Source of the DNA: Clostridiales bacterium
GTDB lineage: Bacteria > Bacillota > Clostridia > Christensenellales > Borkfalkiaceae
Assembly (NCBI GenBank): GCA_015055725.1
Contig: SVHO01000005.1
Coordinates: 76-64,075, forward strand
Direction: 5' to 3'
Length of the DNA stretch: 64,000 nucleotides
The notes below the pieces were generated by a model that was not told the origin of the DNA, did not search any database, and saw only the letters and a program-made list of their open reading frames with translations. Every line of letters starts with the position of its first letter. The first letter of the stretch is position 1. The position numbers were made by a program, and so were the translations under genes. Positions 11,583 through 60,452 of this stretch are shown here, piece by piece.

Positions 11583-11617
11583 AATATAAAAGGGCAGTTT
11601 GAAAAAACAAACTGCCC
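11583..11617 (-). terminator. intrinsic terminator that serves as the riboswitch expression platform
   Basis: Minus strand reads GGGCAGTTTG-TTTTTTC-AAACTGCCC followed by TTTTATATT. The 5' arm overlaps the conserved 3' block of the aptamer. Confidence 0.7.
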
Positions 11618-11685
11618 AGACGGTCGACAAAACTTATCGATTTTTTGCTTCCCACAGGTTAACCCTGCTTGTCCGTCAGTTGCAA
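11611..11685 (-). promoter_or_regulatory. ZTP (pfl-motif) riboswitch aptamer
   Basis: Minus strand reads UUGCA ACUGACGG ACAAG CAGGGUUAACCUG UGGGAAGCAA, then a 21-nt linker, then CCGUCUGGGCAG. This matches the two conserved ZTP blocks, and the pseudoknot pair (GACGG/CCGUC) is kept by compensatory changes. Confidence 0.75.
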
Positions 11686-11713
11686 AAAACGTTTAAATTC
11701 AGATAACGTAATC

Positions 11714-11743
11714 AGTATAACATTTCGTGACGGAAATTGTCAA
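11714..11743 (-). promoter_or_regulatory. sigma-A type promoter of the pur operon
   Basis: TTGACA (11738-11743), 18-nt spacer, TATACT (11714-19) on the minus strand. Confidence 0.55.
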
Positions 11744-11793
11744 ATATTTTTAACCTGCAATCGCAAACAAAAAATCTCTTTTAATAAAATTTT

Positions 11794-13254: not shown

Positions 13255-13256
13255 AT

Positions 13257-40934: not shown

Positions 40935-42026
40935 TTATTCTTCTTTTCCTTCAACAACTGAGTTAGTTGCAAATCTTCTAACCGATTCAATCGCATTGGT
41001 GCAAGATTCCAAGGTATCGTAAGCTTCACCTATGCAGATAACCGATTTTTGCGCGTTGCGGAGTTTATAATAAAATCTGCCGAATTTATCTTTATCAATA
41101 ATAAAATTGCCTTCAGCCGAATTCTTTTTCACCGAAGCGATTGCGTTAACCGCGCTTTTTTCAAGCGCAACTTCTTCTGTTGCAAGCATAAGTTGACCGT
41201 TGCTTGCGTAAAGTTTAGCAGAATAATTGCCGTCTGCAGTTTTTTCCACACGCCATTTTCCGCGCGCACCTTTTTTGGCGTCCGTTTGAGCGGGAACGTA
41301 ATCAATATAGTGCGTGCCTTCAACTAATTCGTCAACGACGGTTGACTCTTTTGCTATGCGCTTAACCGATTCAACAGCCTTTAAGCATCTATCTTTTGAC
41401 TTATAAATTTCACCAACGCATAAAAGCCTGTTATTTGCTGTTTTAAGTTTATAATAATAATTGCCGTTTTTATCTTGATATACAACGAATTTGCCGTTGT
41501 CAACACCCCTGATAATAGTTGCGATGCCACCCCTTGCGCCTTCTTCCGTGGTATAAATTTCACTTGAAAGCATAATTTCACCGTTAGACGCTAAGAGTTT
41601 AGACAAATATTCGCCGTGCCCCTTAAATTCAACGACCCACTTTCCGAATTTCTTTTTAGGTTGCTTTTCTTCTTCAACAACCTTTTTAGCGGGTGCTTTT
41701 TTAACGGGTTTTTTCTCTTCAACTTTAATTTCTGTTGTAGGTTGCTCGATAGCCTTTTTCGTTTCAACAGGTTGCTCTAAAACAACTTCTTCTTTTACCT
41801 CAAGTGCTTTTTCTTCAACAATAGGTTTATCTTCAACTTTAACTTCAACCTTTTGCGCCTTTTTCTTTTTGTTTTTAATAACTGCGCGAATAATCAAAAA
41901 AGTTATCAATCCAACAAAAAGAATAACTAAGCCAAGCCCTATCCAAGCCACAGTGTAGAAAGGAATAGAAGTTAAATCAGAAAGATACGTGCAAATCTTA
42001 GCAATAAATTCTTTAATTTTATCCAT
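40935..42026 (-). CDS. membrane-anchored protein with four YegP/DUF1508 repeats
   Basis: N-terminal TM helix and a Lys/Glu/Val/Pro-rich spacer of about 75 aa. Four repeats of the DUF1508 pattern follow (W..E.......Y..KL.A.NG....SSE.Y....... and variants, e.g. NGNYYYKLKTANNRLLCVGEIYKSKDRC). Confidence 0.75.
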   Translation of the reverse strand: MDKIKEFIAKICTYLSDLTSIPFYTVAWIGLGLVILFVGLITFLIIRAVIKNKKKKAQKVEVKVEDKPIVEEKALEVKEEVVLEQPVETKKAIEQPTTEIKVEEKKPVKKAPAKKVVEEEKQPKKKFGKWVVEFKGHGEYLSKLLASNGEIMLSSEIYTTEEGARGGIATIIRGVDNGKFVVYQDKNGNYYYKLKTANNRLLCVGEIYKSKDRCLKAVESVKRIAKESTVVDELVEGTHYIDYVPAQTDAKKGARGKWRVEKTADGNYSAKLYASNGQLMLATEEVALEKSAVNAIASVKKNSAEGNFIIDKDKFGRFYYKLRNAQKSVICIGEAYDTLESCTNAIESVRRFATNSVVEGKEE

Positions 42027-43227: not shown

Positions 43228-44565
43228 ATGGACAAAATTAGCGGAAAAATAGTTTCAGACACTATATCTTTTTCGGAATTTAAAAAATACGACGGGCAAA
43301 TAGTTTCAATCCGTGGATACGTTCACCGCATACGTGAAATGACGGGTTTTTCATTCGTTATTATTAGAACGGCAAGAGACACGATTCAATGCGTTTACGC
43401 ACCAGAATTTTCAGATTACCGTTGGGACGAAAAAATTTGCGAAGAAGCGTGCGTTAAAGTTAAAGGTAAAGTCGTTTCAAGCAAAGATGCTAAGGGCAAC
43501 GATAGATATGAACTTCAAATACACGATATAAAAATTCTTTCTCTCCCTGCGGATAGATTGCCTATCGTTATCAATAAAAAGCAACTTGATAACATTGGTC
43601 TTTCAACCGTTTTAGACTTACGCCCCGTTTCAATGCGCAACCCAAAAGAGCGTGCAATTTTTAAGTTGCAAGAAGGCATTGCCCGTGGTTTTAGGGAATA
43701 TTTAATGAAAGAAGGGTTCACCGAAATCCGCTCACCAAAAATCGTTTTTGCTGGTGCGGAAGGTGGAACGAATATATTTAAGTTGGATTATTTTGGCAAG
43801 CAAGTTTACCTTGCGCAATCTCCCCAACTTTATAAGCAAGCACTTGTTGGCGTTTACGAACGCGTGTTTGAAATTGCGCCCGTTTTCCGTGCAGAGCATC
43901 ACGACACGTCTCGCCACCTTAACGAATACACTTCTATGGACTTTGAAATGGGCTTTATAAACAGTTATGAAGACATTATGAATATGGAAGTTGGCGTTCT
44001 TAAATATATTATGAACTTGCTCAAGACCGAATATAGTGAAGAAGTTGAACTTTTGCACGCGGATATCCCTGAAATTAACGAAGTTCCCGTTATGAAGTTT
44101 ATGGACGCAAAAGAATTGCTTATGACAAAGTTTAAATATAAACCGCAAGATATGAAAGACTTTGACCCTGCAGAAGAAGAACTTTTAGGCAAATACGCTA
44201 AAAAAGAACTTGGCAGTGACTTCATATTCATAACGCACTATCCGTCAAAGAAACGCCCCTTCTATACCAAAGACGACCCAACCGACCCAGAATACACACT
44301 CTCTTTTGACCTTTTGTTTAGGGGTATGGAAATAACTTCTGGCGGACAAAGAATAAACGATTATCACGAACAAGTTGAAAAAATGATTAAACTTGGCATG
44401 AACCCAGAAGAGTTTGACACTTACCTTATGCTTCATAAATACGGTGCACCACCACACGGCGGATTAGGTATCGGACTTGAAAGACTCACGATGCACATGC
44501 TCGGCGCTAAAAACGTTAGAGAAGCAACTATGTTCCCCCGCGACATCAACCGTGTAACCCCCTAA
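43228..44565 (+). CDS. aspS: aspartate--tRNA ligase, archaeal/eukaryal type 2
   Basis: 445 aa. OB-fold N-terminus and class IIb motifs (FRAEHHDTSRHLNEYTSMDFE, GGQRINDY, GLGIGLERL). The length and the HHDT-RHLNE block favour type-2 AspRS over AsnRS. Confidence 0.8.
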   Translation: MDKISGKIVSDTISFSEFKKYDGQIVSIRGYVHRIREMTGFSFVIIRTARDTIQCVYAPEFSDYRWDEKICEEACVKVKGKVVSSKDAKGNDRYELQIHDIKILSLPADRLPIVINKKQLDNIGLSTVLDLRPVSMRNPKERAIFKLQEGIARGFREYLMKEGFTEIRSPKIVFAGAEGGTNIFKLDYFGKQVYLAQSPQLYKQALVGVYERVFEIAPVFRAEHHDTSRHLNEYTSMDFEMGFINSYEDIMNMEVGVLKYIMNLLKTEYSEEVELLHADIPEINEVPVMKFMDAKELLMTKFKYKPQDMKDFDPAEEELLGKYAKKELGSDFIFITHYPSKKRPFYTKDDPTDPEYTLSFDLLFRGMEITSGGQRINDYHEQVEKMIKLGMNPEEFDTYLMLHKYGAPPHGGLGIGLERLTMHMLGAKNVREATMFPRDINRVTP

Positions 44566-44589: not shown

Positions 44590-44627
44590 TAAAAAACACC
44601 TTTGGAAATTTCCAAAGGTGTTTTCGT
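44590..44627. terminator. bidirectional terminator between aspS and the giant-protein operon
   Basis: Perfect 14-bp palindrome AACACCTTTGGAAA/TTTCCAAAGGTGTT flanked by an A-run and a T-run. Confidence 0.75.
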
Positions 44628-44640
44628 TTGTTAAATTTTA

Positions 44641-47600
44641 TTATTTGATTGTAATGGTTGAATCTGACATTGCAATTATTTCAAAATATGAAACACCGCC
44701 ATCCATAGTGATAGTTAAAGAGTAAGTTTGGCTTCCATATAACGTATAGTCAACTTCTGACATTTGTCTATATTTGCCATTGTCTTCCATACCGTTAGTA
44801 GACTTAACGAAGAAAGTTCCGTCGGTACGGATATCAATCCAATAAGTGTTGCCTTCAACGTCTGTATAAGTGTAAGTGATAAATTCTACAGGTTGGTCAA
44901 CGCTTGGAACGTCACTTCCACCCATATTAGGGGTGATAGTTCTGCTTGCTCTATCAATTATATATTCTCCACCTGCACAAGCGATTGTTTGCGCGTCAAC
45001 AACAACGTATGCAGATTTAGCCATAAACGGTCCGTTATAAATAATTGCAATTCCGTCTTCACCCAATTCAAAAGAGCCGAGATTCATACCGTCAACAACG
45101 TATGCATAATATCCAGCCATTTCTTTATGTTCAGGAACGACTTGAATATTTGAAACGTCAAAAGAATCCATAATCATGAAATATCCTTGAGCGATATCAA
45201 GCATAACGGTGTATCCTTTACCATCGTTGACGCCTAAATAAACTTGACCCATTTGACCAGGCATAATCATAGCAGAAATTTGCGTGCCACTTTCTTGATT
45301 GCCCATAGCAGTTGTATAAACGAATCCATTTTCATTAATAACGAGTGAAGAGCCGTCTTCCATCATAGAGATATAAGAACCAAACGCACTTTCAACGTCA
45401 TAACTCATTTCAGGATATTCAGCTGACGGACCGTCATTACCGCCCATATTTTGTGCAATAAACGAATTGGTTTCGGGGTCGTAAGTAAATTCAAGGCCAT
45501 CAGCTGCGCCCATCATTTCATCCATATAAAGGATAATTCCGGTATCGGTGAGCGAATATCTGCCCATCATACAAACTTTACCAACGCTGAGTTTTGCAAC
45601 TCCGTTATTGCAAAGGATAAGTGACATTTCCATAGGAGCATAGTCCATATTTACGTTGTAAGTTCCTGCAATTTGAGTAAATTCGTCAGATACCTTAAAA
45701 TCAGAACCGTCAAACATAGCGTCAAAATCAACTTCATCACCATAAATGCTTAAAAGAATTTGAGAATATTCGCCCGTTCTAACTTCAATTCCCCTATACA
45801 TTTTGTAATAAGGGCCAGAATAAGATTGGTCGTTAATATTTACGGTTGCAGTGCCATTTGTAAATTCAACGGTGCCCATAACGTATTTATTTTCATAACT
45901 TTCGTCATAACCAACTATGTTGAATTTGCCTTCAATTTCAATATCGCTAACCACAACGTAAACGTCAACACTTCCGCTAACCATATCAGATTTTTCCACA
46001 GGTCTGGTCAAAGCGTAGTCGTAATACAATTCGCCCATTTCAACGTAAGCACCGGCAATTTCGTCTTTCATGTTGTTCATTACGTGTTCGTATAAGTATT
46101 CATCTTGTGAAATATGAATTTGAGTATAACTATCGTAAGGAACGTATTGTCCGCCCATATCGTATAACACGTAAAGGTTATAATACGTTGATTGTGTTTC
46201 TCCACCACCCATATTTGTATCAACGGTGATTTCAATTCTATCGTATCCTTCAACGTAGAAGTCGTAATAATTTTTAGTTATATCGCCGTGTTGTTCACTG
46301 TAAATATTAGTCACCATTTCGGTTTCAAAGCCGAAAGACCTTAAAGCGTTCCAGATTATATTGTCGTATGGCGCGCCGTCGTCTTCATTCATTGGCATTC
46401 TAGCAATCTCTTCACCTCTGGTGTTTAGAACAACGATATAAACGTTTGCTTCATAATCTTCGCTTCCGCCATTATTTGCTGGTTCCCAAATACCTTTATC
46501 GTTAAGGATGAAATCTTGTGGTCTGCCAAACAAATATAAGGTCACACCGGTGTCATTAAGTTCATAATCATTATACATAATAATGCCTGCAAGTTCCATT
46601 TCCCAAACGCCGTTATCATAGAAAAAAGCAGAAACTAAACCAGGTCCGTCAGTAATTAAAACTTGTTTTTCACCTTGTATTTCTTTAAGCTCTTCTACCG
46701 TTTCATAGTTAGAGCCGTCAAAGAAATAGTTTAATATATACATTCCTTCATATTGATAGAAAGTGAATTGAACGAATGTGTCAACGGTAGCAATAATACT
46801 ACCACTCATATTTACGTAAGTTGCATTATATTTCTTATCGCCGTAAACGATTTGAACTTCTTCGCCACTAAAAGATAGTTTACCAACAGCAACGTTTTTA
46901 CCGTAGTCGTCCCTTTCGTAAAGGTCGTATTCACCGTCGATTGATGAAGTTTTTGCTATAACGTAAATAGTGATGTTTTCCTTAAACGTGTCGTTTTCAA
47001 CAACGGGGTTGCTAAATCCTTGGTCATAGAAAGCAACTACGTCCATTCCACTAAAATATTCTATAACGTATTCATTTATAAGCACCCCTTCTCTAACGTT
47101 GACAGGCACCGTAGCCATGTTTGAAAGTTCACCGTTAACTTCCATATAAACTTCAAACGTCACGGAGATTTCTTTTACTTCTTCGTTTCCGTTAGATATA
47201 GTCACGTAAACGCAAACGATATCGTTAGCATTAATGGTAAGGTTGCTTGCAAGTTCTTCGCTTTCATAACGTCCGTATACGTTTGAACTTACGCCATTAT
47301 AAGCCGTAATATTATATTGCCTTTCTAATTTTTCAAACAAAGGTTGGCAAACTTCCCCATAGGTTTGCCCTTGTTTAGCCCTCGTCTCTACACTGTGGAA
47401 CTTGTTGCCATCTTGGTCGTAAACCATAATAGTTAACGAATAGGTATCAACCGTGCCACTTCCCCCACCGATATTTTCAAGTGAAGAAAGTTCGCCAACT
47501 AAATACATTTGAATATATTGACAGTCTTTAACGTTAATTGAGCCGTCGTTATTGATATCGCAAACGTAAATTAAATCGTCACCCAAACTTACGTTTTCAA

Positions 47601-48219
47601 TTATGTATCTTTGGAGTTGAATTAAGTCTTGCAAATTGATATAGCCGTTAAAGTCAACGTCACCTTTAAGGTTTGTTTGTTCTTGCTTAGCTGAAACGTA
47701 AATATCACCAAAATAGATGCCATAATTTACGTCGTTTGCTTTGTCATCAACGAAAAAAGTCTCAATATCGCTACCATGAGAAAAACTCGTGATAAAATCG
47801 CCTCCATGGTTTAACTCAAAGTCAACGTACATTAAATCAACGTTTCCAGCATAGCTGTAAGCAGATGAATATATAACGTTAAACCCTGTATCCGTGTAAA
47901 CAAAACTAAAACTATCAGTTTCGTTTTTAGACATCTCTTCACTTACACGAACGTTAGTGACTCTAAGTGATTGGGGAACGTCTATACTTATTTGGTAAGA
48001 CGCTATACCGCTCGTTTCGGCATAAATCCTTGCCGTATGAACCGTATTTAAATCACTTTCAATGTTCATAGTGTCAGAATAAACGTTCACGTATGAACTG
48101 GTTGTTTCCGTTGTAGAATAATCCGCAGCGGAAACGGTTGCTATAGCGCCACCCAACGCGCTAAACGAAAGCACGAGAGCAACGACTAATGAAAAAAGTC
48201 TTTTCTTAAAATTTTCCAT
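44641..48219 (-). CDS. giant secreted protein 3: cohesin-like module, then dockerin, then about 940 aa of unknown modules
   Basis: Start at ATG 48219 (AGGAG plus 7 nt). Signal peptide ends ...ATVSA-ADY. Two-segment dockerin GDVDFNGYINLQDLIQLQRYI / CDINNDGSINVKDCQYIQMYL at nt 47494-47664. A cohesin-like beta pattern lies at nt 47689-48093. The remaining modules are separated by N(M/I/N)GG linkers. Confidence 0.8.
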   Translation of the reverse strand: MENFKKRLFSLVVALVLSFSALGGAIATVSAADYSTTETTSSYVNVYSDTMNIESDLNTVHTARIYAETSGIASYQISIDVPQSLRVTNVRVSEEMSKNETDSFSFVYTDTGFNVIYSSAYSYAGNVDLMYVDFELNHGGDFITSFSHGSDIETFFVDDKANDVNYGIYFGDIYVSAKQEQTNLKGDVDFNGYINLQDLIQLQRYIIENVSLGDDLIYVCDINNDGSINVKDCQYIQMYLVGELSSLENIGGGSGTVDTYSLTIMVYDQDGNKFHSVETRAKQGQTYGEVCQPLFEKLERQYNITAYNGVSSNVYGRYESEELASNLTINANDIVCVYVTISNGNEEVKEISVTFEVYMEVNGELSNMATVPVNVREGVLINEYVIEYFSGMDVVAFYDQGFSNPVVENDTFKENITIYVIAKTSSIDGEYDLYERDDYGKNVAVGKLSFSGEEVQIVYGDKKYNATYVNMSGSIIATVDTFVQFTFYQYEGMYILNYFFDGSNYETVEELKEIQGEKQVLITDGPGLVSAFFYDNGVWEMELAGIIMYNDYELNDTGVTLYLFGRPQDFILNDKGIWEPANNGGSEDYEANVYIVVLNTRGEEIARMPMNEDDGAPYDNIIWNALRSFGFETEMVTNIYSEQHGDITKNYYDFYVEGYDRIEITVDTNMGGGETQSTYYNLYVLYDMGGQYVPYDSYTQIHISQDEYLYEHVMNNMKDEIAGAYVEMGELYYDYALTRPVEKSDMVSGSVDVYVVVSDIEIEGKFNIVGYDESYENKYVMGTVEFTNGTATVNINDQSYSGPYYKMYRGIEVRTGEYSQILLSIYGDEVDFDAMFDGSDFKVSDEFTQIAGTYNVNMDYAPMEMSLILCNNGVAKLSVGKVCMMGRYSLTDTGIILYMDEMMGAADGLEFTYDPETNSFIAQNMGGNDGPSAEYPEMSYDVESAFGSYISMMEDGSSLVINENGFVYTTAMGNQESGTQISAMIMPGQMGQVYLGVNDGKGYTVMLDIAQGYFMIMDSFDVSNIQVVPEHKEMAGYYAYVVDGMNLGSFELGEDGIAIIYNGPFMAKSAYVVVDAQTIACAGGEYIIDRASRTITPNMGGSDVPSVDQPVEFITYTYTDVEGNTYWIDIRTDGTFFVKSTNGMEDNGKYRQMSEVDYTLYGSQTYSLTITMDGGVSYFEIIAMSDSTITIK

Positions 48220-48257
48220 TTTACTTCTCCTTTTTGAATTTTTCATATTTGACTTTT

Positions 48258-51200
48258 TTATTTTTCAACGTAGTCTATCACGAAATCGGTTTGTACGATT
48301 TGACCGTCTTCATTGATAACGTACATTTCTTCTATAATAACGTTTAGTTTTGCCATATCAAAACTGTTTGCATCAAACAAGAACGTCATAATATGCGTTT
48401 GTTCGGTGGTATTTTCACCCTTTGACCAAACGAACTTAACGAACTGTCCGTTATTGTAAGCATATGAATATTCGTCCGTGTAAGCACCGCCAAACGCCAT
48501 ATCATTAAAGTCAATTCTGCCTAAAAGACCTGCAAAGTTAACTTTACCTTTAATTTCAACGTCAACTTGAACGTTGCCCCTTCCGTCGTTAGAAACGTTA
48601 ACTACCACGTTATTGTCTTTAAGTTCGATAGTAGTTATATTTCCGTCAATTCTAACGTCTTCACTCGGCATAATTTCAGGTGCGTTTTGCCAACCGCTAA
48701 ACACTTGGTTTTCACTAAGCTCAGGCGCATCTATTAAAGTGATTTGTTCGCCTTCAAGAACTTTATCGGTATAATAAATTTGACCGTCAACGTAATAGTT
48801 AACTTGATAGAATTTCTTTATAACCGCATCAATTCTAACGTCTTCGCTCGGCATAAGTTCAGGTGCTTTGCCCCACGCAACGAAGAAGATATTTTCATCT
48901 AAATCGTCAGGTGCGCCGATTAAAGTGATTTCGTCGCCTTCAAGAACTTTCTCAGTGTAATATATAGAACCTGCAACGAAGTATGAAACTTCAAAATATC
49001 TCTTGATTATCGCGTTAACAACGATATCTTCTTCTGGCATAATTTCAGGCGCTTTTTCCCACGCAACGAAGAAGATGTTTTCATCTATATCGCTTGGCGC
49101 ATCAATTAAAGTTATTTTATCACCGGCAAGAACTTTATCCGTGTGACACAAACTGCCGTTTACGTAATAACTAATTTGGTAATATACCCTAATAATTGCG
49201 TCTACTCTTACTGATTGTTCGGGCATTATTTCTGGAACTTCAGTCCAACCACCAAAGTATAAGTTTTCATCTAAGTTGCTCGGCTTACCAATTAAAGTTA
49301 TCTTATCGCCTGCAAGAACTTTATCCGTGTGGTATAAATCACCGTTCACGAAATAGTTAACTTGATAATAATTTTTAACTATAGCGTCAACTCTAACTGC
49401 ACGTTCAGGCATAATTTCAGGAACTTCAGTCCAACCAACGAAGTATAAGTTTTCGTCTAAATCACTTGGCTCACCAATTAAAACGATTTCTTCACCTTCA
49501 AGAACTTTATCCGTTAAATATAGATTTCCTTCTACATAATAGTTAAGTTGATAATATCTCTTAATAACCGCGTCAACTCTAACGTTGTTCTTGGGCATAG
49601 TTTGTGGTGCGGAAGACCATTCAACGAAGCAGATATATTCGTCTATGTCCGTAGGAGCATCTATTAAAACGATTTCATCGCCTTCCTTAATTTGAACGCT
49701 TTGATAAATCACGCCGTCAACGTAATATGAAAGTGTGAAATATTGCAACTTATAAGTCGTTGCAAACACAACGAGACTTTGTGCAGGCATAATTTCAGGA
49801 ACTTCAGACCAGCCTGAGAATATAACGTCTTCATCATCGTAAGTGGGTTGGTCAATCAAAATAATTTGAGTGTTATATTCAACTGATTGAGTTTTATAAA
49901 GCATACCGTTTACGTAATAATAAACGTTATAAGACAACGGGCTAAATTGCGCGTATACGTTAGTTTGTGCTTTTATAGGCGTTGCGTAATCGAAAACGCT
50001 TTGGTCTTCGTTAGTCCAACCGACGAACTTATAACCCATTTTTTCAGGAGTGCCCACGATTGACGCCCTTAAACCATAATTTACTTGTTGAATAGCAACA
50101 ACGTTTTCGCCGTTATAGAAAGTCACGGTGAACGTTTTAATCTTGTAAACGGCAGATATTGTCATATCTTTGGTTATCTTTTCATAATTTGCGTTCCAAC
50201 CGTCAAAAATATAGCCTTCTCTTTCGGTGTCGGTTGGTGCAACTGCGTCTTTAAGATAAGTGACTAATTGAACGTCCGTTTTATCGCCATATTCAAAAGT
50301 GACTTTATAAGTGTTAATTTCAAAGACTGCGTTAACGGTTAAATCACCTTTAACTTCAACAAACGATTTATCCCAACCCTTAAAGGTGTAGCCTTCTTTA
50401 ACGGGATTTGCAGGTGCTATTGCGCTTGCGTCTTCGCTAACGACTTGTTCTTTGCCGTAAAGAACGCCGTCAACCCTAAATTCTACCGTGTAGGTGACTG
50501 CAGGTTTTACTTCCCACTTAGCGTAAAGCATAAAATCCGTCGTGACACCAAGTGAAAAGTCATAAGGCAAGGTGAACTCTTTATCTAAATACCAGCCGAT
50601 GAAAACGTGATTTTCTTTATCGTAAAGTTTTAACGGCGCGGTTTCTCCGTATTTCAATTCTACGTTATCAATTATTTGAAACGAGCCTTTTTCAACTTCT
50701 TCCCTATAAGTGACTTCGTAAGTTCTTTGTTCGTAATTAGTGAAGAGTATGGTATCTTGCGTTATGTTTTTATAATGCTGACCAATAGTTTCACCGTCGC
50801 TCCAACCCAAGAAGTCATAACCTTCTTTTTCAGCGAGAACGGGCACTTTTGCATCTTTGCCATATTCAACGTATTGAATAGCACCAACTCTCTTGCTACC
50901 GTTATAGAAGATAACAACGAACGTTTGAGCGCGGAATTTTGCGGTGACAACGATATCTTTATCAATATTTTTAAATCCGATATCCCAACCGTCAAATTCT
51001 TTGCCTTCGGGAATTCTAATCTTATCTAAATCGGGTTCTTTTGCGTTTTGACCATATTTAACCGTTTGAACTTCTATTTCACCCTCATCATCAACGAAAG
51101 TGACGGTGTAAGACATAATAGAGAATATAGGATAAACGTCTAAATCGCGCGTGACTGACGAAAAGTCTTGTGTCCAACGCAAGAATTCATAACCTTCTCT

Positions 51201-52190
51201 ATAAGGGTCACCTGGAACGATTGCGCCTTGCCCTTCTTCAACTAATTGAGTTCCGCCGTATTGAGTGCCGTCGTAATTAAAAAATCTTACGCTATACTTT
51301 GGTTTTTCAATAGGAATAAATTTAGCAAACAAATCAACGTCTTTATCAATCGCACTATAAAAATCAAACATTGACGTTGCCTCTAAACTTTCATACCAAC
51401 CTATAAAGATATAATTTTCTTTACTTGGCGCAGTCGTTGGGAAACTTGCATATTCGCCGTAAGCAACCGTTTGCACGTCGTGCACGTCTTGGTCAACGTA
51501 GAAAGAAACTTGATATTCGTCAGGTTGATATTCAACGAAAATTTCAGTATCTTGCGTTATTTCTTCAACTTCACCTTTATACCCTATAGCCGTGTAATGC
51601 TCAACGTTAAATTCGCTAAGGTCGGGAAGATTTGCATTTTGCCCGTGAACGACTTCTTTTGTAAATAAAACTTGGTCGTCAAGTCCGTAAACGGTGACGG
51701 TATAAGTTTTATCTTCTAAGATTGCGTTTACGGAAAGGTTTTCGTTAACACCTGTAATATCAACGTTTTCCCAACCGACAAAACGTTTGCCCTCAGGGCA
51801 TTCTACCGTTGCAGGAGCAATCGCGTTTTCCCCTTCGATAACTTTTTGAGTGTTAACGACAATGCCGTCAACCAAAAATTTCACTTCAAAAATTTTCAAA
51901 GGAACGTCCCAGTCGGCAATCAGTATTAAATCTTCTTTAATTCGAGTTCTAAACGAGAATTTTTCTCCGTTAAGCGTCCAATGCTTAAACAATGCGCCGT
52001 CTTTTGTGGGCGTTGCAGGAACGGATAAATAATCTCCGTCAGCCACTTCAACCTCTAAATACGTTTCAGTTTCGCTAAGCATAAATAAAACTGTATGTTC
52101 TTCTTGTGCAGATGCGCTAAAAGGCGCAACTGCAAAGCAAGGTATTAGAAGTGCCAACAATATGGTTAAAAACAAAAATTTCTTTTTCAC
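48258..52190 (-). CDS. giant secreted protein 2: Listeria-Bacteroides (Flg_new) repeats, seven 62-aa repeats, C-terminal cohesin-like module
   Basis: GTG start after a GGGAGG RBS. Signal peptide ends ...FSASA-QEE. About 11 repeats of type Y.V.F......Q.V..G..A..P..P..EGY.F.GW. The C-terminal 124 aa (nt 48261-48632) reads VQVDVEIKGKVNFAGLLGRIDF...FVKFVWS...IMTFLF. Confidence 0.8.
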   Translation of the reverse strand: MKKKFLFLTILLALLIPCFAVAPFSASAQEEHTVLFMLSETETYLEVEVADGDYLSVPATPTKDGALFKHWTLNGEKFSFRTRIKEDLILIADWDVPLKIFEVKFLVDGIVVNTQKVIEGENAIAPATVECPEGKRFVGWENVDITGVNENLSVNAILEDKTYTVTVYGLDDQVLFTKEVVHGQNANLPDLSEFNVEHYTAIGYKGEVEEITQDTEIFVEYQPDEYQVSFYVDQDVHDVQTVAYGEYASFPTTAPSKENYIFIGWYESLEATSMFDFYSAIDKDVDLFAKFIPIEKPKYSVRFFNYDGTQYGGTQLVEEGQGAIVPGDPYREGYEFLRWTQDFSSVTRDLDVYPIFSIMSYTVTFVDDEGEIEVQTVKYGQNAKEPDLDKIRIPEGKEFDGWDIGFKNIDKDIVVTAKFRAQTFVVIFYNGSKRVGAIQYVEYGKDAKVPVLAEKEGYDFLGWSDGETIGQHYKNITQDTILFTNYEQRTYEVTYREEVEKGSFQIIDNVELKYGETAPLKLYDKENHVFIGWYLDKEFTLPYDFSLGVTTDFMLYAKWEVKPAVTYTVEFRVDGVLYGKEQVVSEDASAIAPANPVKEGYTFKGWDKSFVEVKGDLTVNAVFEINTYKVTFEYGDKTDVQLVTYLKDAVAPTDTEREGYIFDGWNANYEKITKDMTISAVYKIKTFTVTFYNGENVVAIQQVNYGLRASIVGTPEKMGYKFVGWTNEDQSVFDYATPIKAQTNVYAQFSPLSYNVYYYVNGMLYKTQSVEYNTQIILIDQPTYDDEDVIFSGWSEVPEIMPAQSLVVFATTYKLQYFTLSYYVDGVIYQSVQIKEGDEIVLIDAPTDIDEYICFVEWSSAPQTMPKNNVRVDAVIKRYYQLNYYVEGNLYLTDKVLEGEEIVLIGEPSDLDENLYFVGWTEVPEIMPERAVRVDAIVKNYYQVNYFVNGDLYHTDKVLAGDKITLIGKPSNLDENLYFGGWTEVPEIMPEQSVRVDAIIRVYYQISYYVNGSLCHTDKVLAGDKITLIDAPSDIDENIFFVAWEKAPEIMPEEDIVVNAIIKRYFEVSYFVAGSIYYTEKVLEGDEITLIGAPDDLDENIFFVAWGKAPELMPSEDVRIDAVIKKFYQVNYYVDGQIYYTDKVLEGEQITLIDAPELSENQVFSGWQNAPEIMPSEDVRIDGNITTIELKDNNVVVNVSNDGRGNVQVDVEIKGKVNFAGLLGRIDFNDMAFGGAYTDEYSYAYNNGQFVKFVWSKGENTTEQTHIMTFLFDANSFDMAKLNVIIEEMYVINEDGQIVQTDFVIDYVEK
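48633..49935 (-). repeat. seven tandem coding repeats of about 186 bp (60-63 aa) in giant gene 2
   Basis: Units such as YYQVNYFVNGDLYHTDKVLAGDKITLIGKPSNLDENLYFGGWTEVPEIMPEQSVRVDAIIR recur 7 times with 50-80 percent identity by eye. Confidence 0.8.
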
Positions 52191-52208
52191 TTTTATTTCC
52201 TCCCTTTA

Positions 52209-55200
52209 TTATTGATTTAAAACTTTTGCGTAAAGTTCAATATCTTCGGTGATAGGCGTCGTTTCAAACACAAACGGAACGTCACTATCTTTTAAGCACC
52301 AGTAATATTCGTCGCCGTAAGGCGCGGGTTCGATTGCGTAATAATTTTTAGCAACGACTTGAATATTACCATAAACGTTTTCGTTAGGGTCGTAGAAGGT
52401 GACTGTATACATATCTGCAAGTTTTCTATATTTTGCAGTAAGCGTTATGCCTTCTTCCGTTATCGGTGTTGAGAAGTCAAACGGTGTTTCTTCGTCGTCA
52501 AGATACCAATACATAAACACGCTACCAGGTTTTGACGGAGTGTTTGGAATACTTACGCATGCGCCGTATTCAACCTTAACTTCAAGAAGTTGATTTGAAA
52601 CGCCGTCGTTAAAGAACACTATTCTCTTTTGAGTTAAATATACCGCGCGGACGTCTAAATCTTTAGTTATGCTATCGATATTGTGGCTCCAACCGCTAAA
52701 CTCTTTACCTTCAATAGTGGGAATAAGAGATAATTCGGGGGCTTGTGAGCGCGCGCTCTTTAAGTATTCAACTTGAATTGTTTGACCTATTTGAACAGTG
52801 CCGTCAACGTTAAAGAATCTAACGTTATACTTTTTAGCCTTATATATAGCCACAACGGTTATATCTTCTCTAACGTTATCAAACGCTTTATCCCAACCAA
52901 CGAAGTCATACCCCGTGATAACGGGTGCGTTAGGTTCGATTGCAGAGTTGCCTTCAATAACCGTTTGTTTACTTATCAAAGTGCCGTTTGGGGTTGCAAA
53001 TTCAACTTGGTATTCTTCAACAACTATAATTTCAAATTTAGCGTAAATAGTGGTATCTTTCTTTATAGGTTGATTAAAGTTGAAAACGTTTTCAAAGTTT
53101 TCGTCAGCATACCAGTTAATGAAACTATAACCTGCTTTGCTTGGCGTAATCGGAACGGAAAGCGTGGTGTTATATTCAACGTTATCTACCGTAATTAAAG
53201 CTTCTTTGCTATCTCCGTCAACAAACGTTGCCGTGAAAACGTGCACTTGGTAAACTGCGGTAACGATAAGGTCTTTTTTAACTTCATCAAATTCCGTATC
53301 CCATTTAACGAAGGTATAACCTTCTTTGTCAAGGTCGGTAGGAGCAGTTGCGGAGTTTCCAAATTCAACCGTTTGTTTTTCTCCCATTTGAGAACCGTCA
53401 CTATCCTTAAATATAACGGTGAACGTTTTAATTTCGAAAATTGCGTATACTTCTAAGTCGTTTTCAATTTTATTAAACGCTTTATCCCAACCAACGAAAG
53501 TGTATCCTTCTTTCACAGGGTCTGCTGGTGCCGTTGCACTGCCACCTTTAACGACTGATTGTTCGTCAATAAGTTTTTCGCTTTGTTTATCAATAAATTT
53601 AACCGTACGTATTTCAGCAGGTTTTTCTTTCCATATAGCCAAAACATCTTCATCTTGAATTATTTTAGAATCAAAGTCAAATTCAACGTCTTGATCGTTA
53701 AAGTAAACCCATTTAACCCATAAATAATCGTCTGCAGTAGGCGTTGTCGGCTTAATTGCACTCGCCATATATTTTACGCTTTGGGTTTCATAAACGTTTT
53801 CATCAATCTTTTCATTTGCAATATAGAAAGTCACTTTGTAAGAGTTTACCGTATAAGATGCGGTGATGGTTAAATTGCTATTTATACCTTCTTCTCTATC
53901 GAAATCGGTTATAGCACCCGTCTTTTCGTCTATAATCACCCAACCCGCAAAGGTGTGCCCTTCTTTTTCGGGGTCTGCGGGCAAGTGCGGAACGGTTTGC
54001 CCTTCTTCAATAGATTGAACGCCACTTAGTTCAGCGCCGTTATCATTTACGAATATAACGCTATACATAGTCACTCTCTTTTCCGTTCTTGCGTAAAGAT
54101 TTAAATCTTTGGTCACGTTTGCAGTTGCGTCGTAAAGAGTTTTAAACGTAGGGTCGGTATACCAACCGATAAAATTATAATTATCTTTTTCATATGTATA
54201 AAGCGTGACGGGTGTGTTATAATCAACCTTTTCAAAGTGAACTCTTTCATAGCCGTCGTAAAAACTTACTTCACGTTTTTCCGCTTCAAAGCGCGCTTCA
54301 ATCACGCAATCGTTTGCAGGCATATTAAACGTGTAATTAGGCGTTTCACAAACGTTTTCATTATCAACGAACCAGCCGACGAAGTCATATCCAACTTTTT
54401 CAGTTGCCGTGAGCGAAATGCTATCGGCATAATTGACTTTACGGCCACTAATCTTTCCGTTATTTTCTTTAACACTACCCATATTTTCATCTTTAGAACT
54501 GAAAGAAAGCGTGTAAGTGTTAACGGTAAATTGTGCCTCCAAGGTAATTTCACTTGCAGACATATCGAAAGTATACGTTGCCGAAGTGCTTACCCTTTGC
54601 GTGCCTTTATACCAACCGTCAAAGGTATAACCCGTGTTAGCAGTTGCAGTTATGGTCACAGATTGACCGAACAAAACGTCACTACCACTTGCAATAGAAC
54701 TTGAAACCGTTCCTTTTGTATCACTTTCAGATGAATAGTTAAGTTTATAACTATTAGTTTCAAATTGTGCTTCTAAGGTAAGCGCGTTTGCAGGCATATC
54801 GAAAGTATACGTTGCAGACGTGTTAACGATTTCCGTGCCGTTATGCCAACCCTTAAAAGTATAACCCGTGTTAGCAGTTGCAGTTAAAGTGATAGATTGA
54901 CCGAATAAAACGTCGCTATCGTTTGCCGTTTGGCTACTAACCGTACCTTTTGCCGTGCTTTCAGAACTAAACTTAAGTTTATAACTATTAGTGCTAAAAT
55001 GTGCTTCTAAGGTAATTGCGCTTGCCTTCATATCGAAGGTATACGTTGCAGACGTGTTAATAATTTCCGTGCCGTTATACCAACCAACGAAGGTATAACC
55101 TGCATTAGCGGTTGCTGTTATGGTCACAGATTGACCGAACAAAACGTCGCTACCACTTGCAATAGAACTTGAAACCGTTCCTTTTGCATCACTTTCAGAT

Positions 55201-56024
55201 GAATAGTTAAGTTTATAACTATTAGTTTCAAATTGTGCTTCTAAGGTAAGCGCGTTTGCAGGCATATCGAAAGTGTACGTTGCAGACGTGTTAACGATTT
55301 CCGTGCCGTCATGCCAACCCTTAAACGTATAACCTGTGTTAGAAGTTGCAGTTATCGTCACAGATTTACCGAACAAAACGTCACTACCACTAGCGATAGA
55401 ACTTGAAACCGTTCCTTTTGCATCACTTTCAGATGAATAGTTAAGTTTATAACTATTAGTTTCAAATTGCGCTTGCAAGGTAAGCGCGTTTGCAGGCATA
55501 TCGAAAGTATACGTTGCAGACGTGTTAACGATTTCCGTGCCGTTATGCCAACCAACGAAGGAATAGCCTGCGTTTGCAGTTGCAGTTATCGTCACCGACT
55601 GGCCGAAAGAAACGTTGCTACCACTAGCGATAGAACTTGAAACTGTTCCTTTTGCCGTATCTTCCGAACTGTAGTTAAGCGCAAAAGTGTCTAAAACGAA
55701 TTTAGCGGTATAATCCACGTCAGCCGTAAGTTTAACGGTAAGTGGGTTATCGTTTGAAGATTTTGCGCCGTCAAGATACCAGCCGTCAAAAACGTAGCCG
55801 GTGTTTGCGGTTGCAGTGAGAGTAAACTCGCTCCCCTTGTTATACTTATTGCCTGAAGAAACGTCTTGCCCGTTTTTATCAACGCAAGAAACCACGCCGT
55901 AAGCCGTGTTTTCGGTTGCAAAAGATAAGGTGTATTTTTTTGCGGGCTTACTGCACGCAAAAGAAAACGAGCAAACTAAAGCAACAATCATAAGTAAGGT
56001 TAATAAAAGTTTAGATTTTTTCAC
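52209..56024 (-). CDS. giant surface protein 1 (possible lipoprotein): divergent InlB-B-type repeats plus Listeria-Bacteroides repeats
   Basis: GTG start after an AAGGAG RBS. Signal peptide has Cys24 (FSFAC-SKP, a non-canonical lipobox). About seven repeats of roughly 78 aa, GTVSS....G..V.FG.SVTITAT.N.GY.F.GW, are followed by about ten Flg_new repeats. Confidence 0.8.
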   Translation of the reverse strand: MKKSKLLLTLLMIVALVCSFSFACSKPAKKYTLSFATENTAYGVVSCVDKNGQDVSSGNKYNKGSEFTLTATANTGYVFDGWYLDGAKSSNDNPLTVKLTADVDYTAKFVLDTFALNYSSEDTAKGTVSSSIASGSNVSFGQSVTITATANAGYSFVGWHNGTEIVNTSATYTFDMPANALTLQAQFETNSYKLNYSSESDAKGTVSSSIASGSDVLFGKSVTITATSNTGYTFKGWHDGTEIVNTSATYTFDMPANALTLEAQFETNSYKLNYSSESDAKGTVSSSIASGSDVLFGQSVTITATANAGYTFVGWYNGTEIINTSATYTFDMKASAITLEAHFSTNSYKLKFSSESTAKGTVSSQTANDSDVLFGQSITLTATANTGYTFKGWHNGTEIVNTSATYTFDMPANALTLEAQFETNSYKLNYSSESDTKGTVSSSIASGSDVLFGQSVTITATANTGYTFDGWYKGTQRVSTSATYTFDMSASEITLEAQFTVNTYTLSFSSKDENMGSVKENNGKISGRKVNYADSISLTATEKVGYDFVGWFVDNENVCETPNYTFNMPANDCVIEARFEAEKREVSFYDGYERVHFEKVDYNTPVTLYTYEKDNYNFIGWYTDPTFKTLYDATANVTKDLNLYARTEKRVTMYSVIFVNDNGAELSGVQSIEEGQTVPHLPADPEKEGHTFAGWVIIDEKTGAITDFDREEGINSNLTITASYTVNSYKVTFYIANEKIDENVYETQSVKYMASAIKPTTPTADDYLWVKWVYFNDQDVEFDFDSKIIQDEDVLAIWKEKPAEIRTVKFIDKQSEKLIDEQSVVKGGSATAPADPVKEGYTFVGWDKAFNKIENDLEVYAIFEIKTFTVIFKDSDGSQMGEKQTVEFGNSATAPTDLDKEGYTFVKWDTEFDEVKKDLIVTAVYQVHVFTATFVDGDSKEALITVDNVEYNTTLSVPITPSKAGYSFINWYADENFENVFNFNQPIKKDTTIYAKFEIIVVEEYQVEFATPNGTLISKQTVIEGNSAIEPNAPVITGYDFVGWDKAFDNVREDITVVAIYKAKKYNVRFFNVDGTVQIGQTIQVEYLKSARSQAPELSLIPTIEGKEFSGWSHNIDSITKDLDVRAVYLTQKRIVFFNDGVSNQLLEVKVEYGACVSIPNTPSKPGSVFMYWYLDDEETPFDFSTPITEEGITLTAKYRKLADMYTVTFYDPNENVYGNIQVVAKNYYAIEPAPYGDEYYWCLKDSDVPFVFETTPITEDIELYAKVLNQ
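54516..55685 (-). repeat. five tandem 234-bp (78-aa) coding repeats, several near-identical at DNA level, in giant gene 1
   Basis: Protein residues 114-503 form five 78-aa units (YKLNYSSESDAKGTVSSSIASGSDVLFG.SVTITAT.N.GYTF.GW..GTEIVNTSATYTFDMPANALTLEAQFETNS). DNA blocks such as gcaggcatatcgaaagt(a/g)tacgttgcagacgtgttaacgatttccgtgcc recur at multiples of 234 bp. Confidence 0.85.
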
Positions 56025-56204
56025 TTTAATTTCTCCTTAATAAAAGTCAATTTAAAAACAAAAAACCAAATATTTATCATTAGCACAAGCGAAGAAGAAA
56101 AATATTTGATTAAACTTTTAATCCACCAAAGGAAGTTCAACGTTTTTTCAAAACGTTGAAAGGCATGCCTTTCATTTTTAAAACCGATATTTATTTACAT
56201 ATAT

Positions 56205-56233
56205 ATTTTATTACAAAAATATATATAAGTCAA
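56205..56233 (-). promoter_or_regulatory. promoter of the giant-protein operon
   Basis: Minus strand: TTGACT, 17-nt spacer, TAAAAT. It leaves a leader of about 175 nt. Confidence 0.5.
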
Positions 56234-58405: not shown

Positions 58406-60403
58406 TTAAACTTGCTTAAACGTGTTGTAAACCTTGGTTAAGGATTGAGCGGTGACAGGTTGACCACCAATCGTATCAATAAGAAGTGCTGCAGTACAAT
58501 CGAAGATTGTGATATTAACGTGCGTCACGTCTTTAAACTCAGTCCATGTGCCCGTGGTTTCTGTCCATTCAGAACTTACCGTTGAATCTTGCATACTAGT
58601 CGGGCAAAGATTTACTGCAGTAGGTGCTTTATTAATATCAGTAGTATATCTTAAGAACACTTCACTGTTGACAATCGATACACCCATCATTTCGTAAAAA
58701 TACTTATCTTCGTTCATAAGATATTGATTGCCGTTAGGGTGAATTAAGCTACCTATAGGTCTTTCAGAGTGGCCATAATCTGCCCAACCATAAGTCATAG
58801 TATATTTTCTGATTACAGAACCAGAAACGCCATATAGTTTAGACCATTTAGCAGGTCTCATACCCATATGCATATGAGCAAAATTGCTAGCATAAGTTTG
58901 ATTTTCTACTGAAAAATAAACGTACACGAAATTATTTGCATCATTAACGTCTTCAATCTTCATTTTAATATTTTTAGCAGACTTAGTGACGTTTTTATTT
59001 ACTGCAAAACGAATCAAATCAGTTGTTCCATCCGTTAAAGGAACGTTCTCAACAAACGTGTTAACAACAGGGCCAGCAGTTATTTCAATTGCATTTGTAG
59101 CGATATCGCTATCCGCAGAACCTTTTGCAACAAATTTAGAACATTCAACCACGTGTTCATAAGAATAAGTCACACCATAACTATCGGTATAATTGATAAG
59201 TACGGTTTCATCACCCATAGCGTTAGTTGCTTTTCCACCATTTCTTAAATAAATATAAGAAGCATGCCCATAATTAGAACCAGGCACTAACCAAGAAGTT
59301 TCATCATAATCTTTAACGGTGTATACTGTTTCTGCTTGAGCACTAGTGTTTTCATCGTCAGTCCAATAATTTAAGCCCCTCAAAGAAATAAATTGCCCTT
59401 TGCCAGAAGCATAATCTTTAGCAACAAAAGTTTCTAATTTAAAAGTCGGAACGGCATTGAGTTTCACGCCGTGACGTTTAATTGTTAAGTCACCTAAATC
59501 AATTTCTTTAGAGCCTATGGAAAACCCAAGTTCATACACACCTGATTTAAGGAAAGTATATTTGTTTTCTTCAGCATTAAATCCAATGCAGTCATAATCA
59601 ACAAGGTCATCTTTAGTTAAAACAAGTTTAACACCTGCTGTAAGAGTTTTGTTGTTGCTGGGGTTCTTAACGGTTGCGGTTGCAACAAACTCATCTCCAC
59701 GATACGCAACGCCGTTTTCAATTGCGTTGCCATCAACAGCCAAGTCTATGTCCGAATATTTCTCAGTCACACTGTCAACCACGTCAACGAGATAATCTTT
59801 AACTGCTTTTTGTGCGGGAATATCTTCTTCAAATTCAGCGGTTGCTAAATGCTTAGATGCAACTTCAAATATGTTCTTTTGTGAATATCCCTTTGCATAG
59901 AAATATTCGTTGCCAATTTTATAATACGCTTTTGCCGTAAATCCACGCGCAAAGTTGCTTTCTTTAATATTTATAAAAGACGCGCACAAAACGTATTCTG
60001 TTTCATCGCCGTCATCATCATAGTCGTTAAGGTCGATAACAGGGGTATTAACACCTTTAGCAAAATATTTTTGTGCGGGATTTTCTTCATCATATTCAGG
60101 CAAATCACTGTTGCCAAAGCGCAAATCTTCAACGTTGCTAATCCAATCGGTAGGAACTAAAATAATACCGAATTCAATACCATCAATATTTTTCAACTTA
60201 TCATAGTCATCTGAACCGATTGTTGCAGCAAATCTAATGCCGTTAGGCCCGCTTTGACGAACTTGAACGGCGCTTGCCATTTCAAAAGTTGTCACTTCGT
60301 TAGAAGCGTAAGCGTTGCCAACACCAAGCATTGCAATTGACATACAAAATGCGAAAACAAGCGTTAAAATAGTTAGCGAAATTTTTGTAAATCTTTTACT
60401 CAT
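58406..60403 (-). CDS. secreted protein of unknown function (665 aa from ATG 60403; 668 aa from the track ATG 60412)
   Basis: Signal peptide ends ...GVGNAYA-SNE. Beta-rich and Asp/Asn/Tyr-rich, with no catalytic motif recognised. AGGAG lies 11 nt before ATG 60403 and only 2 nt before ATG 60412, so the start is ambiguous. Confidence 0.7.
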   Translation of the reverse strand: MSKRFTKISLTILTLVFAFCMSIAMLGVGNAYASNEVTTFEMASAVQVRQSGPNGIRFAATIGSDDYDKLKNIDGIEFGIILVPTDWISNVEDLRFGNSDLPEYDEENPAQKYFAKGVNTPVIDLNDYDDDGDETEYVLCASFINIKESNFARGFTAKAYYKIGNEYFYAKGYSQKNIFEVASKHLATAEFEEDIPAQKAVKDYLVDVVDSVTEKYSDIDLAVDGNAIENGVAYRGDEFVATATVKNPSNNKTLTAGVKLVLTKDDLVDYDCIGFNAEENKYTFLKSGVYELGFSIGSKEIDLGDLTIKRHGVKLNAVPTFKLETFVAKDYASGKGQFISLRGLNYWTDDENTSAQAETVYTVKDYDETSWLVPGSNYGHASYIYLRNGGKATNAMGDETVLINYTDSYGVTYSYEHVVECSKFVAKGSADSDIATNAIEITAGPVVNTFVENVPLTDGTTDLIRFAVNKNVTKSAKNIKMKIEDVNDANNFVYVYFSVENQTYASNFAHMHMGMRPAKWSKLYGVSGSVIRKYTMTYGWADYGHSERPIGSLIHPNGNQYLMNEDKYFYEMMGVSIVNSEVFLRYTTDINKAPTAVNLCPTSMQDSTVSSEWTETTGTWTEFKDVTHVNITIFDCTAALLIDTIGGQPVTAQSLTKVYNTFKQV

Positions 60404-60452
60404 TTTTACCATTTCTCCTTTTTTTAGAGTATTGTTTTAAGCAAAGTCTTGC

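Follow-up and report, generated by a model that had tools for sequence, protein, structure and literature searches.

Cohesin–dockerin pairs are usually taken as markers of a cellulosome or an amylosome, and the locus described here raises the question of what such a pair does in an operon of giant repeat proteins in which no enzyme is recognised. The locus lies in a 64,000-nt stretch of contig SVHO01000005.1 (assembly GCA_015055725.1) from a Clostridiales bacterium; this whole stretch is called the window below, and coordinates are positions in it unless another locus is named. Three open reading frames (ORFs; genes 1, 2 and 3, encoding proteins 1, 2 and 3) run in one direction on the minus strand, at 44641–56024. 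An earlier interpretation of the DNA, made without database searches (the sequence-only reading), had proposed that a dockerin in protein 3 docks onto a cohesin-like module of protein 2, onto protein 3 itself or onto a distant scaffoldin, giving an adhesin-like complex rather than a cellulosome. Our analysis favours, at a probability of roughly 0.55, a self-contained, enzyme-free and Ca-dependent surface cassette in which the dockerin of protein 3 would plug into the cohesin of protein 2.

The C-terminal module of protein 2 is a real, divergent cohesin. A search with full-length protein 2 returned about 50 orthologue clusters, each of which ends in this module. The AlphaFold2 model obtained with an alignment of 35 sequences of the module (A2) consists almost entirely of beta-strands (predicted local distance difference test score, pLDDT, 93.6; predicted template-modelling score 0.84) and agrees with the nine-stranded beta jelly-roll fold of solved cohesins. 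Its top Foldseek matches in the PDB were the cohesins 2jh2, 2w1n, 5k39, 2vo8 and 2xdh, together with 2bm3, which like 5k39 is a type II cohesin; the scores were moderate (E 1e-5 to 1e-3, template-modelling (TM) score 0.5–0.64), and CBM2 and chitin-binding domains were interleaved among them. When the A2 profile was run exhaustively against 1.84 billion proteins, 291 were matched at E≤1e-3, and the matches included Pfam-verified cohesin repeats in the multi-cohesin proteins P0173, P0193, P0207, P0212 and P0217 (library-wide E 7e-12 to 1e-7), with five Pfam Cohesin domains lying under the matches in P0173 and four in P0217. Of 108 shorter matched proteins, 28 carry Pfam Cohesin, eight Dockerin_1 and six SLH. 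It is this match to Pfam-verified cohesins that identifies the module. We also aligned 14 Pfam-verified cohesin repeats, drawn from the matches of the A2 profile itself, as set A5; this set matches solved cohesins at ~1e-12, and its hhalign comparison with A2 gave a probability of 97.1% (E 5.5e-11). A CBM2 or chitin-binding identity for the module was considered and rejected, as the A2 profile and hhalign evidence point to cohesins.

The Pfam Cohesin model (PF00963), proposed in the sequence-only reading as a means of checking the two modules, matched neither of them at E≤10, and a single one of the 35 members of the protein 2 family reached E 0.03. Likewise, PDB sequence searches with the cohesin segments, as single sequences and as family profiles, returned no cohesin, only dockerins or nothing. 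The two cohesins are thus detected by structure and profile–profile methods only. Among the A2 matches, P0169, P0176 and P0196 are small proteins with cohesin-like stretches that Pfam likewise misses, and either an LPXTG anchor or a dockerin forms their end; Pfam-invisible cohesins of the protein 2 type thus occur elsewhere in classical anchoring or adaptor architectures as well. P0176 has two such stretches and one dockerin, on a contig of 1.6 kb.

The N-terminal module of protein 3 is, judging by its modelled fold and by profile–profile comparison, a second real and divergent cohesin. A word-indexed homologue search with protein 3 gave six clusters, to all of which the N-terminal head is common. 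The AlphaFold2 model of residues 1–260 rests on a five-sequence alignment and is of moderate confidence; it shows a helix of low pLDDT at residues 2–22 and a beta-sandwich at residues 43–176, where block-mean pLDDT is mostly 77–91 with a single dip to 68. Cohesins make up all of the top 23 Foldseek matches of this sandwich in the PDB and include types I, II and III as well as the archaeal one (best E 1.3e-8, for 6kgf_A; target-normalised TM 0.79 for 2xdh), and hhalign aligned A5 with the head over 124 columns, residues 52–175, at 86.1% probability (E 5e-6). Weak matches of the cohesin-like segments to PASTA, PrpR_N, DOT1 and End_beta_barrel, all below cut-off, were dismissed as repeat noise. 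Direct BLAST found no similarity between the modules of proteins 2 and 3, and hhalign of A2 against the alignment of the protein 3 head (A3) reached only 27.7%; the two cohesins are therefore of different types and not close paralogues.

The dockerin that follows is recognised directly. Pfam Dockerin_1 (PF00404) scores 30.1 bits with the full protein and 33.2 bits with a sub-fragment, against a gathering cut-off of 22.9, and a PDB sequence search matched the solved type I dockerins 3ul4_B and 4dh2_B at E 1e-7. Each of the two Ca-binding loops (given in Table 1) has D or N at positions 1, 3, 5, 9 and 12, and the model places three helices at residues 196–208, 214–220 and 230–240. Over 14 cassettes the dockerin has the highest mean identity of the modules, 44.6%, rising to 57.9% for its second segment plus the linker that follows, compared with ~24–26% for the cohesins. 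From the second segment onward (47461–47559, minus strand) the sequence is near-invariant throughout the family, DINNDGxINxxDCQYIQMYLVGxxxSLENIGGG, including a conserved Cys, while the first segment is variable. This asymmetry may mean that binding takes place in one mode only, through helix 3.

The arrangement of these modules recurs in other genomes. All nine look-ups that started from relatives of protein 2 or protein 3 (P0023, P0024, P0028, P0041, P0064, P0073, P0053, P0077 and P0046) showed the same gene order among unrelated neighbours: a Flg_new_2/Flg_new protein, a Flg_new protein ending in a cohesin, and a dockerin protein. A scan of GTDB species genomes with A3 added seven loci, from metagenome-assembled genomes (MAGs) of sheep colon, roe-deer colon, and other Eubacteriales and Christensenellaceae. 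Of 15 independent loci checked with a hidden Markov model (HMM), 14 have a protein-2-type cohesin gene that ends 20–212 nt before the start of the head-profile match in a protein-3-type gene, and this next gene begins with a signal peptide, a cohesin, a dockerin and SLENIGGG. Exactly one dockerin was found per locus, and the SLENIGGG linker is present at all loci. The cassette is thus conserved, and mobile as a unit among unrelated neighbourhoods, in MAGs of ruminant-gut Clostridia. At one locus, L006 (1–3918 and 21752–22963), it stands beside MukB/JetD-like (Wadjet-type) genes and a phage-type integrase, a hint that this copy resides in a mobile or defence island.

No enzyme accompanies the cassette. 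In the three proteins no glycoside hydrolase, carbohydrate-binding module (CBM), SLH or LPXTG family passes its Pfam cut-off, and no glycoside hydrolase, CBM, polysaccharide lyase or carbohydrate esterase was found in the three proteins, the scanned neighbours in the window or eight protein-3-like relatives. The hallmarks of a cellulosome or amylosome, dockerin-bearing carbohydrate-active enzymes and a CBM-bearing scaffoldin, are likewise missing from the window and the flanks of the loci. Neither Gram_pos_anchor nor SLH was found in the three proteins; protein 2 terminates in its cohesin, and protein 3 in ...DSTITIK.

How the cassette could be held at the cell is suggested by protein 1 and its relatives. 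Pfam finds Flg_new_2 (PF18998) in nine stretches (347.6 bits) and Flg_new (PF09479) in 15 stretches (329.7 bits) of protein 1, and 11 Flg_new stretches (269.1 bits) with one Flg_new_2 stretch (52.6 bits) in protein 2, so that both proteins belong to these families with multiple repeats and scores above the cut-off. NCBIfam adds only partial matches to internalin A and internalin H, confined to the repeat region and far below cut-off. The lipobox of the window protein, SFAC, is non-canonical at positions −3 and −2 with respect to [LVI][ASTVI][GAS]C. A lipobox Cys is present at the equivalent position in all eight protein-1-like proteins examined (pattern [LVIFA][ASVG][GAS]C, with S, G, A or D as the next residue), and the seven orthologues have more canonical boxes there (LVSC, FVGC, AISC, LVGC, LSAC, IASC and AVAC). 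Lipidation of Cys24 gains support from this conservation. In three divergent two-gene versions of the cassette (L008, 5189–9964; L011, 7468–9765; L012, 646–5871) no separate protein-1-like gene stands ahead of the cohesin-ending gene, whose own product bears a lipobox (LFSC/K, LIAC/D and LTMC/N, respectively). This suggests that the ancestral layout may have been a lipoprotein ending in a cohesin, later split into proteins 1 and 2 in the clade of the window, or, put more generally, that anchor and cohesin-bearing stalk were split, or fused, in the course of evolution.

Protein 2 itself appears to be a secreted stalk. An HMM built from its 62-residue repeats finds seven strong copies and, weakly, the Flg_new units at residues 101–158, 226–268 and 567–609, which marks the repeats as a divergent Flg_new subtype. 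Genes 1 and 2 both contain long DNA tandem arrays (Table 1); repeat number varies among orthologues, which range from 995 to 1552 aa, and the length of the stalk is therefore evolutionarily plastic. The signal peptides of protein 2 orthologues end in AxA-type cleavage sites, and across the family there is no conservation of the Cys at position 18. A lipoprotein identity for protein 2, raised by an LIPC motif that is conserved in close relatives, was accordingly rejected as a general feature, this Cys being missing from many orthologues with AxA sites.

Beyond the linker, protein 3 continues into a tail with no Pfam, NCBIfam or credible PDB sequence match. Fragment BLAST reveals internal repeats (residues 397–563 with 732–899, and 836–965 with 1020–1143). 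In eight divergent protein-3-like proteins of 700–2700 aa the dockerin is the sole Pfam domain; their tails are shuffled between close relatives and cannot be aligned between distant ones. Protein 3 thus appears to combine a conserved docking head with a variable, probably exposed tail. In P0026 and P0027 (protein-3-like; L008, 9974–14179) the tails are unlike that of the window and contain paired CxxC…CxxC motifs, e.g., CMQSGYEAVYCTSC…CVHCG, which may form extracellular zinc-ribbon-like knots. A polymorphic toxin, which would also show a conserved head and a variable tail, was considered unlikely for protein 3, as there is no conserved immunity-like gene downstream and the neighbours are housekeeping genes.

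Apart from the Pfam Cohesin search, these results bear out the domain content that had been proposed: a protein 1 built solely of InlB-B-type and Listeria–Bacteroides repeats, which the Flg_new_2 and Flg_new models confirm; about 11 Listeria–Bacteroides and seven 62-residue repeats in protein 2; a cohesin-like module closing protein 2 and another opening protein 3; a textbook two-segment dockerin followed by some 940 residues of no recognisable family; and an operon free of glycoside hydrolase, CBM, SLH and LPXTG elements. The proposal that protein 1 may be lipid-anchored through Cys24 has been strengthened by the orthologues, although its own box is atypical.

Taken together, the data are consistent with the following assembly. 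Protein 1 would be a lipid-anchored stalk of Flg_new_2 and Flg_new repeats, and protein 2 a secreted Flg_new stalk with a single divergent cohesin at its distal, C-terminal end. Protein 3, also secreted, begins with a compact cohesin–dockerin head, and a long, fast-evolving tail without known domains follows. Its Ca-loaded dockerin would insert, without covalent bonds, into the cohesin that terminates protein 2, and the variable tail would thereby be held out on a long repeat stalk, forming an adhesin or ligand-binding end at its tip. The protein 3 cohesin would stay free to take the dockerin of another protein 3, extending a chain, or to bind a partner encoded elsewhere, and protein 2 would be retained perhaps through protein 1. 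The proposed docking of protein 3 on protein 2 is strengthened by the adjacency of the cohesin-ending and cohesin–dockerin genes in 14 of the 15 loci, with one dockerin in each. Neighbouring genes for cognate cohesin and dockerin partners are known from the sca cluster of Ruminococcus flavefaciens and the cipA–olpB cluster of Clostridium thermocellum. A scheme of membrane anchor, terminal cohesin and docked protein also fits the lipobox on the cohesin-bearing protein of L008, L011 and L012.

Several observations weigh against this assembly. At L010, 1 of the 15 loci, a protein-3-like gene has no adjoining protein-2-type cohesin gene: it stands alone at 8481–13643 as a cohesin–dockerin gene of 1721 aa, with ~3 kb upstream that hold no clean ORF. 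The ordinary AxA signal peptides of the protein 2 orthologues, which have no recognisable anchor, leave the retention of protein 2 at the cell unexplained. Moreover, the two cohesins are so unlike each other that one dockerin is unlikely to serve both equally; with two cohesins and one dockerin in the cassette, one cohesin must rely on self-polymerisation or on a partner encoded elsewhere.

Both ways out of this last difficulty can be turned into rival explanations. If protein 3 associates with itself, its dockerin binds its own cohesin, either in trans, to give head-to-tail multimers or fibres, or in cis, as a closed clasp, and the cohesin of protein 2 serves as a chain primer only or binds something else. 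Every member of the family has cohesin and dockerin fused by a short linker of ~8–10 residues, as this explanation would have it, and the solitary gene of L010 suits it too. The dockerin of Amy4 from Ruminococcus bromii binds the cohesin of Amy4, and multimerisation has been proposed (PMC4611034); monovalent adaptors with a cohesin and a dockerin have been suggested to form fibre-like structures (bioRxiv 10.64898/2026.02.05.704116). Self-association leaves the protein-2-type cohesin gene that stands ahead in 14 of 15 loci unexplained, and gains nothing from mirror-tree analysis, since the identity correlations of the dockerin with each cohesin over the 14 cassettes are all positive and discriminate no partner. 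We regard it as doubtful.

Alternatively, the cassette could supply a scaffoldin to a genome-wide network resembling a cellulosome or amylosome, the spare cohesin or both cohesins taking dockerin proteins encoded elsewhere. The excess of cohesins over dockerins agrees with such a role, and the profile relatives of the protein 2 cohesin sit in classical multi-cohesin, dockerin-, SLH- or LPXTG-bearing proteins. Sequence-divergent cohesins have also hidden whole cellulosomes in Ruminococcus, scaffoldin-like Flg proteins among them (bioRxiv 10.64898/2026.02.05.704116). This explanation seems rather unlikely, as no further dockerin, cohesin or dockerin-bearing enzyme was found in the 64-kb window or in ~10 kb around the fetched loci, and the cassette stays together when it moves among unrelated neighbourhoods.

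A bolder form of the docking of protein 3 on protein 2, which we consider quite unlikely, is an enzyme-free polymerisation machine: the cohesin of protein 2 would prime a chain in which copies of protein 3 are joined head to tail, each dockerin sitting on the cohesin of the next copy, to form a non-covalent, Ca-dependent "cohesin–dockerin pilus" that bristles with hypervariable orphan tails and is rooted by a lipoprotein and a Flg_new stalk instead of sortase or SLH. Finally, it is very improbable that the cohesin-fold modules are merely structural or carbohydrate-binding beta-sandwiches (CBM2-like at the end of protein 2, for example) and the dockerin a Ca-binding stabiliser with no partner: the moderate Foldseek scores with their interleaved CBM2 and chitin-binding domains, the failure of Pfam Cohesin and the need for some means of retaining protein 2 speak for this, but sequence profiles tie the protein 2 module to Pfam-verified cohesins and not to CBMs, Pfam scans find no CBM family, and a strict pairing with a dockerin gene is to be expected of a cohesin.

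Among the known systems closest to the cassette are the monovalent ScaC-type adaptors of R. flavefaciens and their anchoring scaffoldins, where one cohesin and one dockerin are likewise combined in a secreted protein, the partner has a terminal cohesin and the genes are adjacent; the R. flavefaciens cohesins 4uyp, 5n5p, 5m2s and 2zf9 are among the fold matches of the protein 3 module. Unlike in ScaC, the cohesin–dockerin pair here is N-terminal and followed by an orphan tail of 400–2400 aa, anchoring is apparently by lipoprotein instead of sortase and LPXTG, the cohesins escape the Pfam model, and dockerin-bearing enzymes and CBMs are absent from the window and the locus flanks. The amylosome of R. 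bromii is another cohesin–dockerin system of non-cellulolytic gut Clostridia, in which Amy4 carries both modules (PMC4611034), and the solved structures of Amy16 and Amy10 contain dockerins to which that of the window is matched. Whereas the amylosome is made of GH13 amylases and proteins that bind starch, the cassette has no catalytic or starch-binding module.

Cohesins and dockerins outside plant-cell-wall degradation are also represented by the glycoside hydrolase and toxin pairs of Clostridium perfringens and by a cohesin of Archaeoglobus fulgidus. The best fold matches of the protein 2 module include the cohesin-like modules 2jh2, 2w1n and 2vo8 of C. perfringens and the cohesin 2xdh of A. 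fulgidus, the last of which also stands high among the matches of the protein 3 module. Enzymes are what the C. perfringens pairs join; in the present case the two partners are repeat proteins, neither of them enzymatic, and three genes form a cassette dedicated to them. The "group 4–6" cohesins of Ruminococcus callidus-like cellulosomes were, like the present ones, invisible to sequence models and found by AlphaFold and structure search (bioRxiv 10.64898/2026.02.05.704116). They belong to elaborate cellulosomes of eight scaffoldins, in which glycoside hydrolases bear dockerins and anchoring is by LPXTG. In the Ruminococcus group, Flg (Listeria–Bacteroides) domains are drawn in scaffoldin-like proteins (same source). 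Long arrays of such repeats are typical of Listeria internalin B-repeat/Flg_new surface proteins as well as of proteins 1 and 2, which differ from internalins in having no leucine-rich repeat domain and no LPXTG or GW anchor, and in an array that ends in a cohesin.

Thus, the dockerin, cohesin and Flg_new families, non-cellulosomal cohesin–dockerin systems and sequence-cryptic cohesins are all known already. New are a conserved cassette of three genes (or two) that includes neither an enzyme nor a CBM, a Flg_new array scaffold with a cohesin at its tip, an N-terminal cohesin–dockerin head joined to a hypervariable orphan tail, and the anchoring, which is apparently by a lipoprotein. Our literature searches found no description of such a cassette, a dedicated unit with a cohesin–dockerin pair and no enzyme that recurs in many uncultured ruminant-gut Clostridia. 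If protein 3 does dock on protein 2, sequence-based censuses undercount cohesins, and hence non-cellulosomal cohesin–dockerin assemblies; very large variable proteins could be displayed from a lipoprotein root independently of sortase; and new orthogonal cohesin–dockerin pairs would become available for protein engineering. The long variable tails are candidates for adhesion to host, particles or other cells in a poorly known gut lineage.

Table 1. Features of the cassette and its flanks, with positions in the window and the evidence for each.
Feature	Position	Strand	Evidence
Gene 1: 1271-aa predicted lipoprotein composed solely of Flg_new_2 (InlB B-repeat type) and Flg_new (Listeria–Bacteroides) repeats	52209..56024	-	ORF, Pfam
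Protein 1 signal peptide with lipobox-like ...SFSFAC/SKP (Cys24)	55953..56024	-	read from sequence
234-nt (78-aa) DNA tandem array, 4.8 copies, 82% identity, encoding the Flg_new_2 repeats of protein 1	54528..55655	-	Tandem Repeats Finder
Gene 2: 1310-aa secreted protein (signal peptide, Flg_new array, seven 62-aa repeats, C-terminal cohesin)	48258..52190	-	ORF, Pfam
Protein 2 signal peptide, probable signal peptidase I cut after ASA (residue 28)	52107..52190	-	read from sequence
Seven tandem 62-aa repeats of protein 2, residues 754–1184, divergent Flg_new subtype	48639..49931	-	HMM built from repeats
DNA tandem array, 186 nt × 4.6, 72%, corresponding to the 62-aa repeats	48733–49583	.	Tandem Repeats Finder
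Divergent cohesin of protein 2, residues ~1187–1310, family motif FVWSxGxNxTE	48261..48632	-	AlphaFold2, Foldseek, profile search, hhalign
Gene 3: 1192-aa secreted protein (signal peptide, cohesin, dockerin, SLENIGGG linker, 940-aa orphan tail)	44641..48219	-	ORF, GGAG ribosome-binding site
Protein 3 signal peptide (…ATVSA/ADY)	48127..48219	-	read from sequence; conserved in orthologues
Divergent N-terminal cohesin of protein 3 (modelled), residues ~43–176	47692..48093	-	AlphaFold2, Foldseek, hhalign
Dockerin of protein 3, residues 185–240, Ca-binding loops DVDFNGYINLQD and DINNDGSINVKD	47500..47667	-	Pfam Dockerin_1
SLENIGGG linker, near-invariant, after the dockerin	47461..47484	-	alignment A3; L247, E248 and G252 invariant
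Orphan tail of protein 3, residues 254–1192, beta-rich modules with N(N/M)GG linkers	44644..47460	-	fragment BLAST, domain scans
Sigma-70-like promoter candidate TTGACT-17-TAAAAT, ~180 nt upstream of gene 1	56205..56233	-	consensus scan, 10/12 matches
Candidate bidirectional terminator: perfect palindromic hairpin, 14-bp stem, flanked by an A-run and a T-run	44593..44624	.	terminator scan, consensus match only

The ORFs, start codons, lengths and gaps of the operon are as had been read from the sequence. Genes 1 and 2 begin with GTG (56024 and 52190) and gene 3 with ATG (48219); 18 nt separate gene 1 from gene 2, and 38 nt gene 2 from gene 3. A GGAG-type ribosome-binding site precedes GTG 56024 and ATG 48219. 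The latter, rather than ATG 48246, is supported as the start of gene 3: the orthologue alignment begins there, the protein in the databases has 1192 aa, and no GGAG-type site precedes the longer ORF that would open at ATG 48246. Identical copies of all three proteins are deposited in public databases, from a metagenome-assembled "Clostridiales bacterium", as E7347_02145, E7347_02140 and E7347_02135, each under the name "hypothetical protein".

The promoter and bidirectional terminator that the three genes had been said to share are both present, as consensus matches; the sharing is plausible rather than demonstrated. Promoter-like sites are common across this AT-rich region (56 found by the consensus scan, ~36 expected). 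If the candidate is real, a leader of ~180 nt (56025–56204, minus strand) results, in which adjacent hairpins lie at 56136–56160 and 56157–56174; an Rfam search of operon and leader gave no match. The hairpin at 44593–44624 stands between gene 3 and a convergent gene for a class II (D/K/N) aminoacyl-tRNA synthetase (43228–44565; tRNA-synt_2 match), and as a candidate terminator it would serve both.

The flanks of the cassette in the window are housekeeping: in addition to this synthetase they comprise genes for DegV, IF-3, a cyclophilin, major facilitator superfamily (MFS) transporters, pur genes, DXS and TrkAH. Past the cyclophilin and MFS transporter genes, ~2.4 kb upstream of the cassette, a gene at 58406–60412 (minus strand) encodes another orphan secreted protein, of 668 aa, with a clear signal peptide (…GNAYA/S) and without a Pfam family. 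On the other side, 40935–42026 (minus strand) encodes a 363-aa protein with four DUF1508 repeats, whose place beside DegV and IF-3 is conserved in L001, a syntenic locus.

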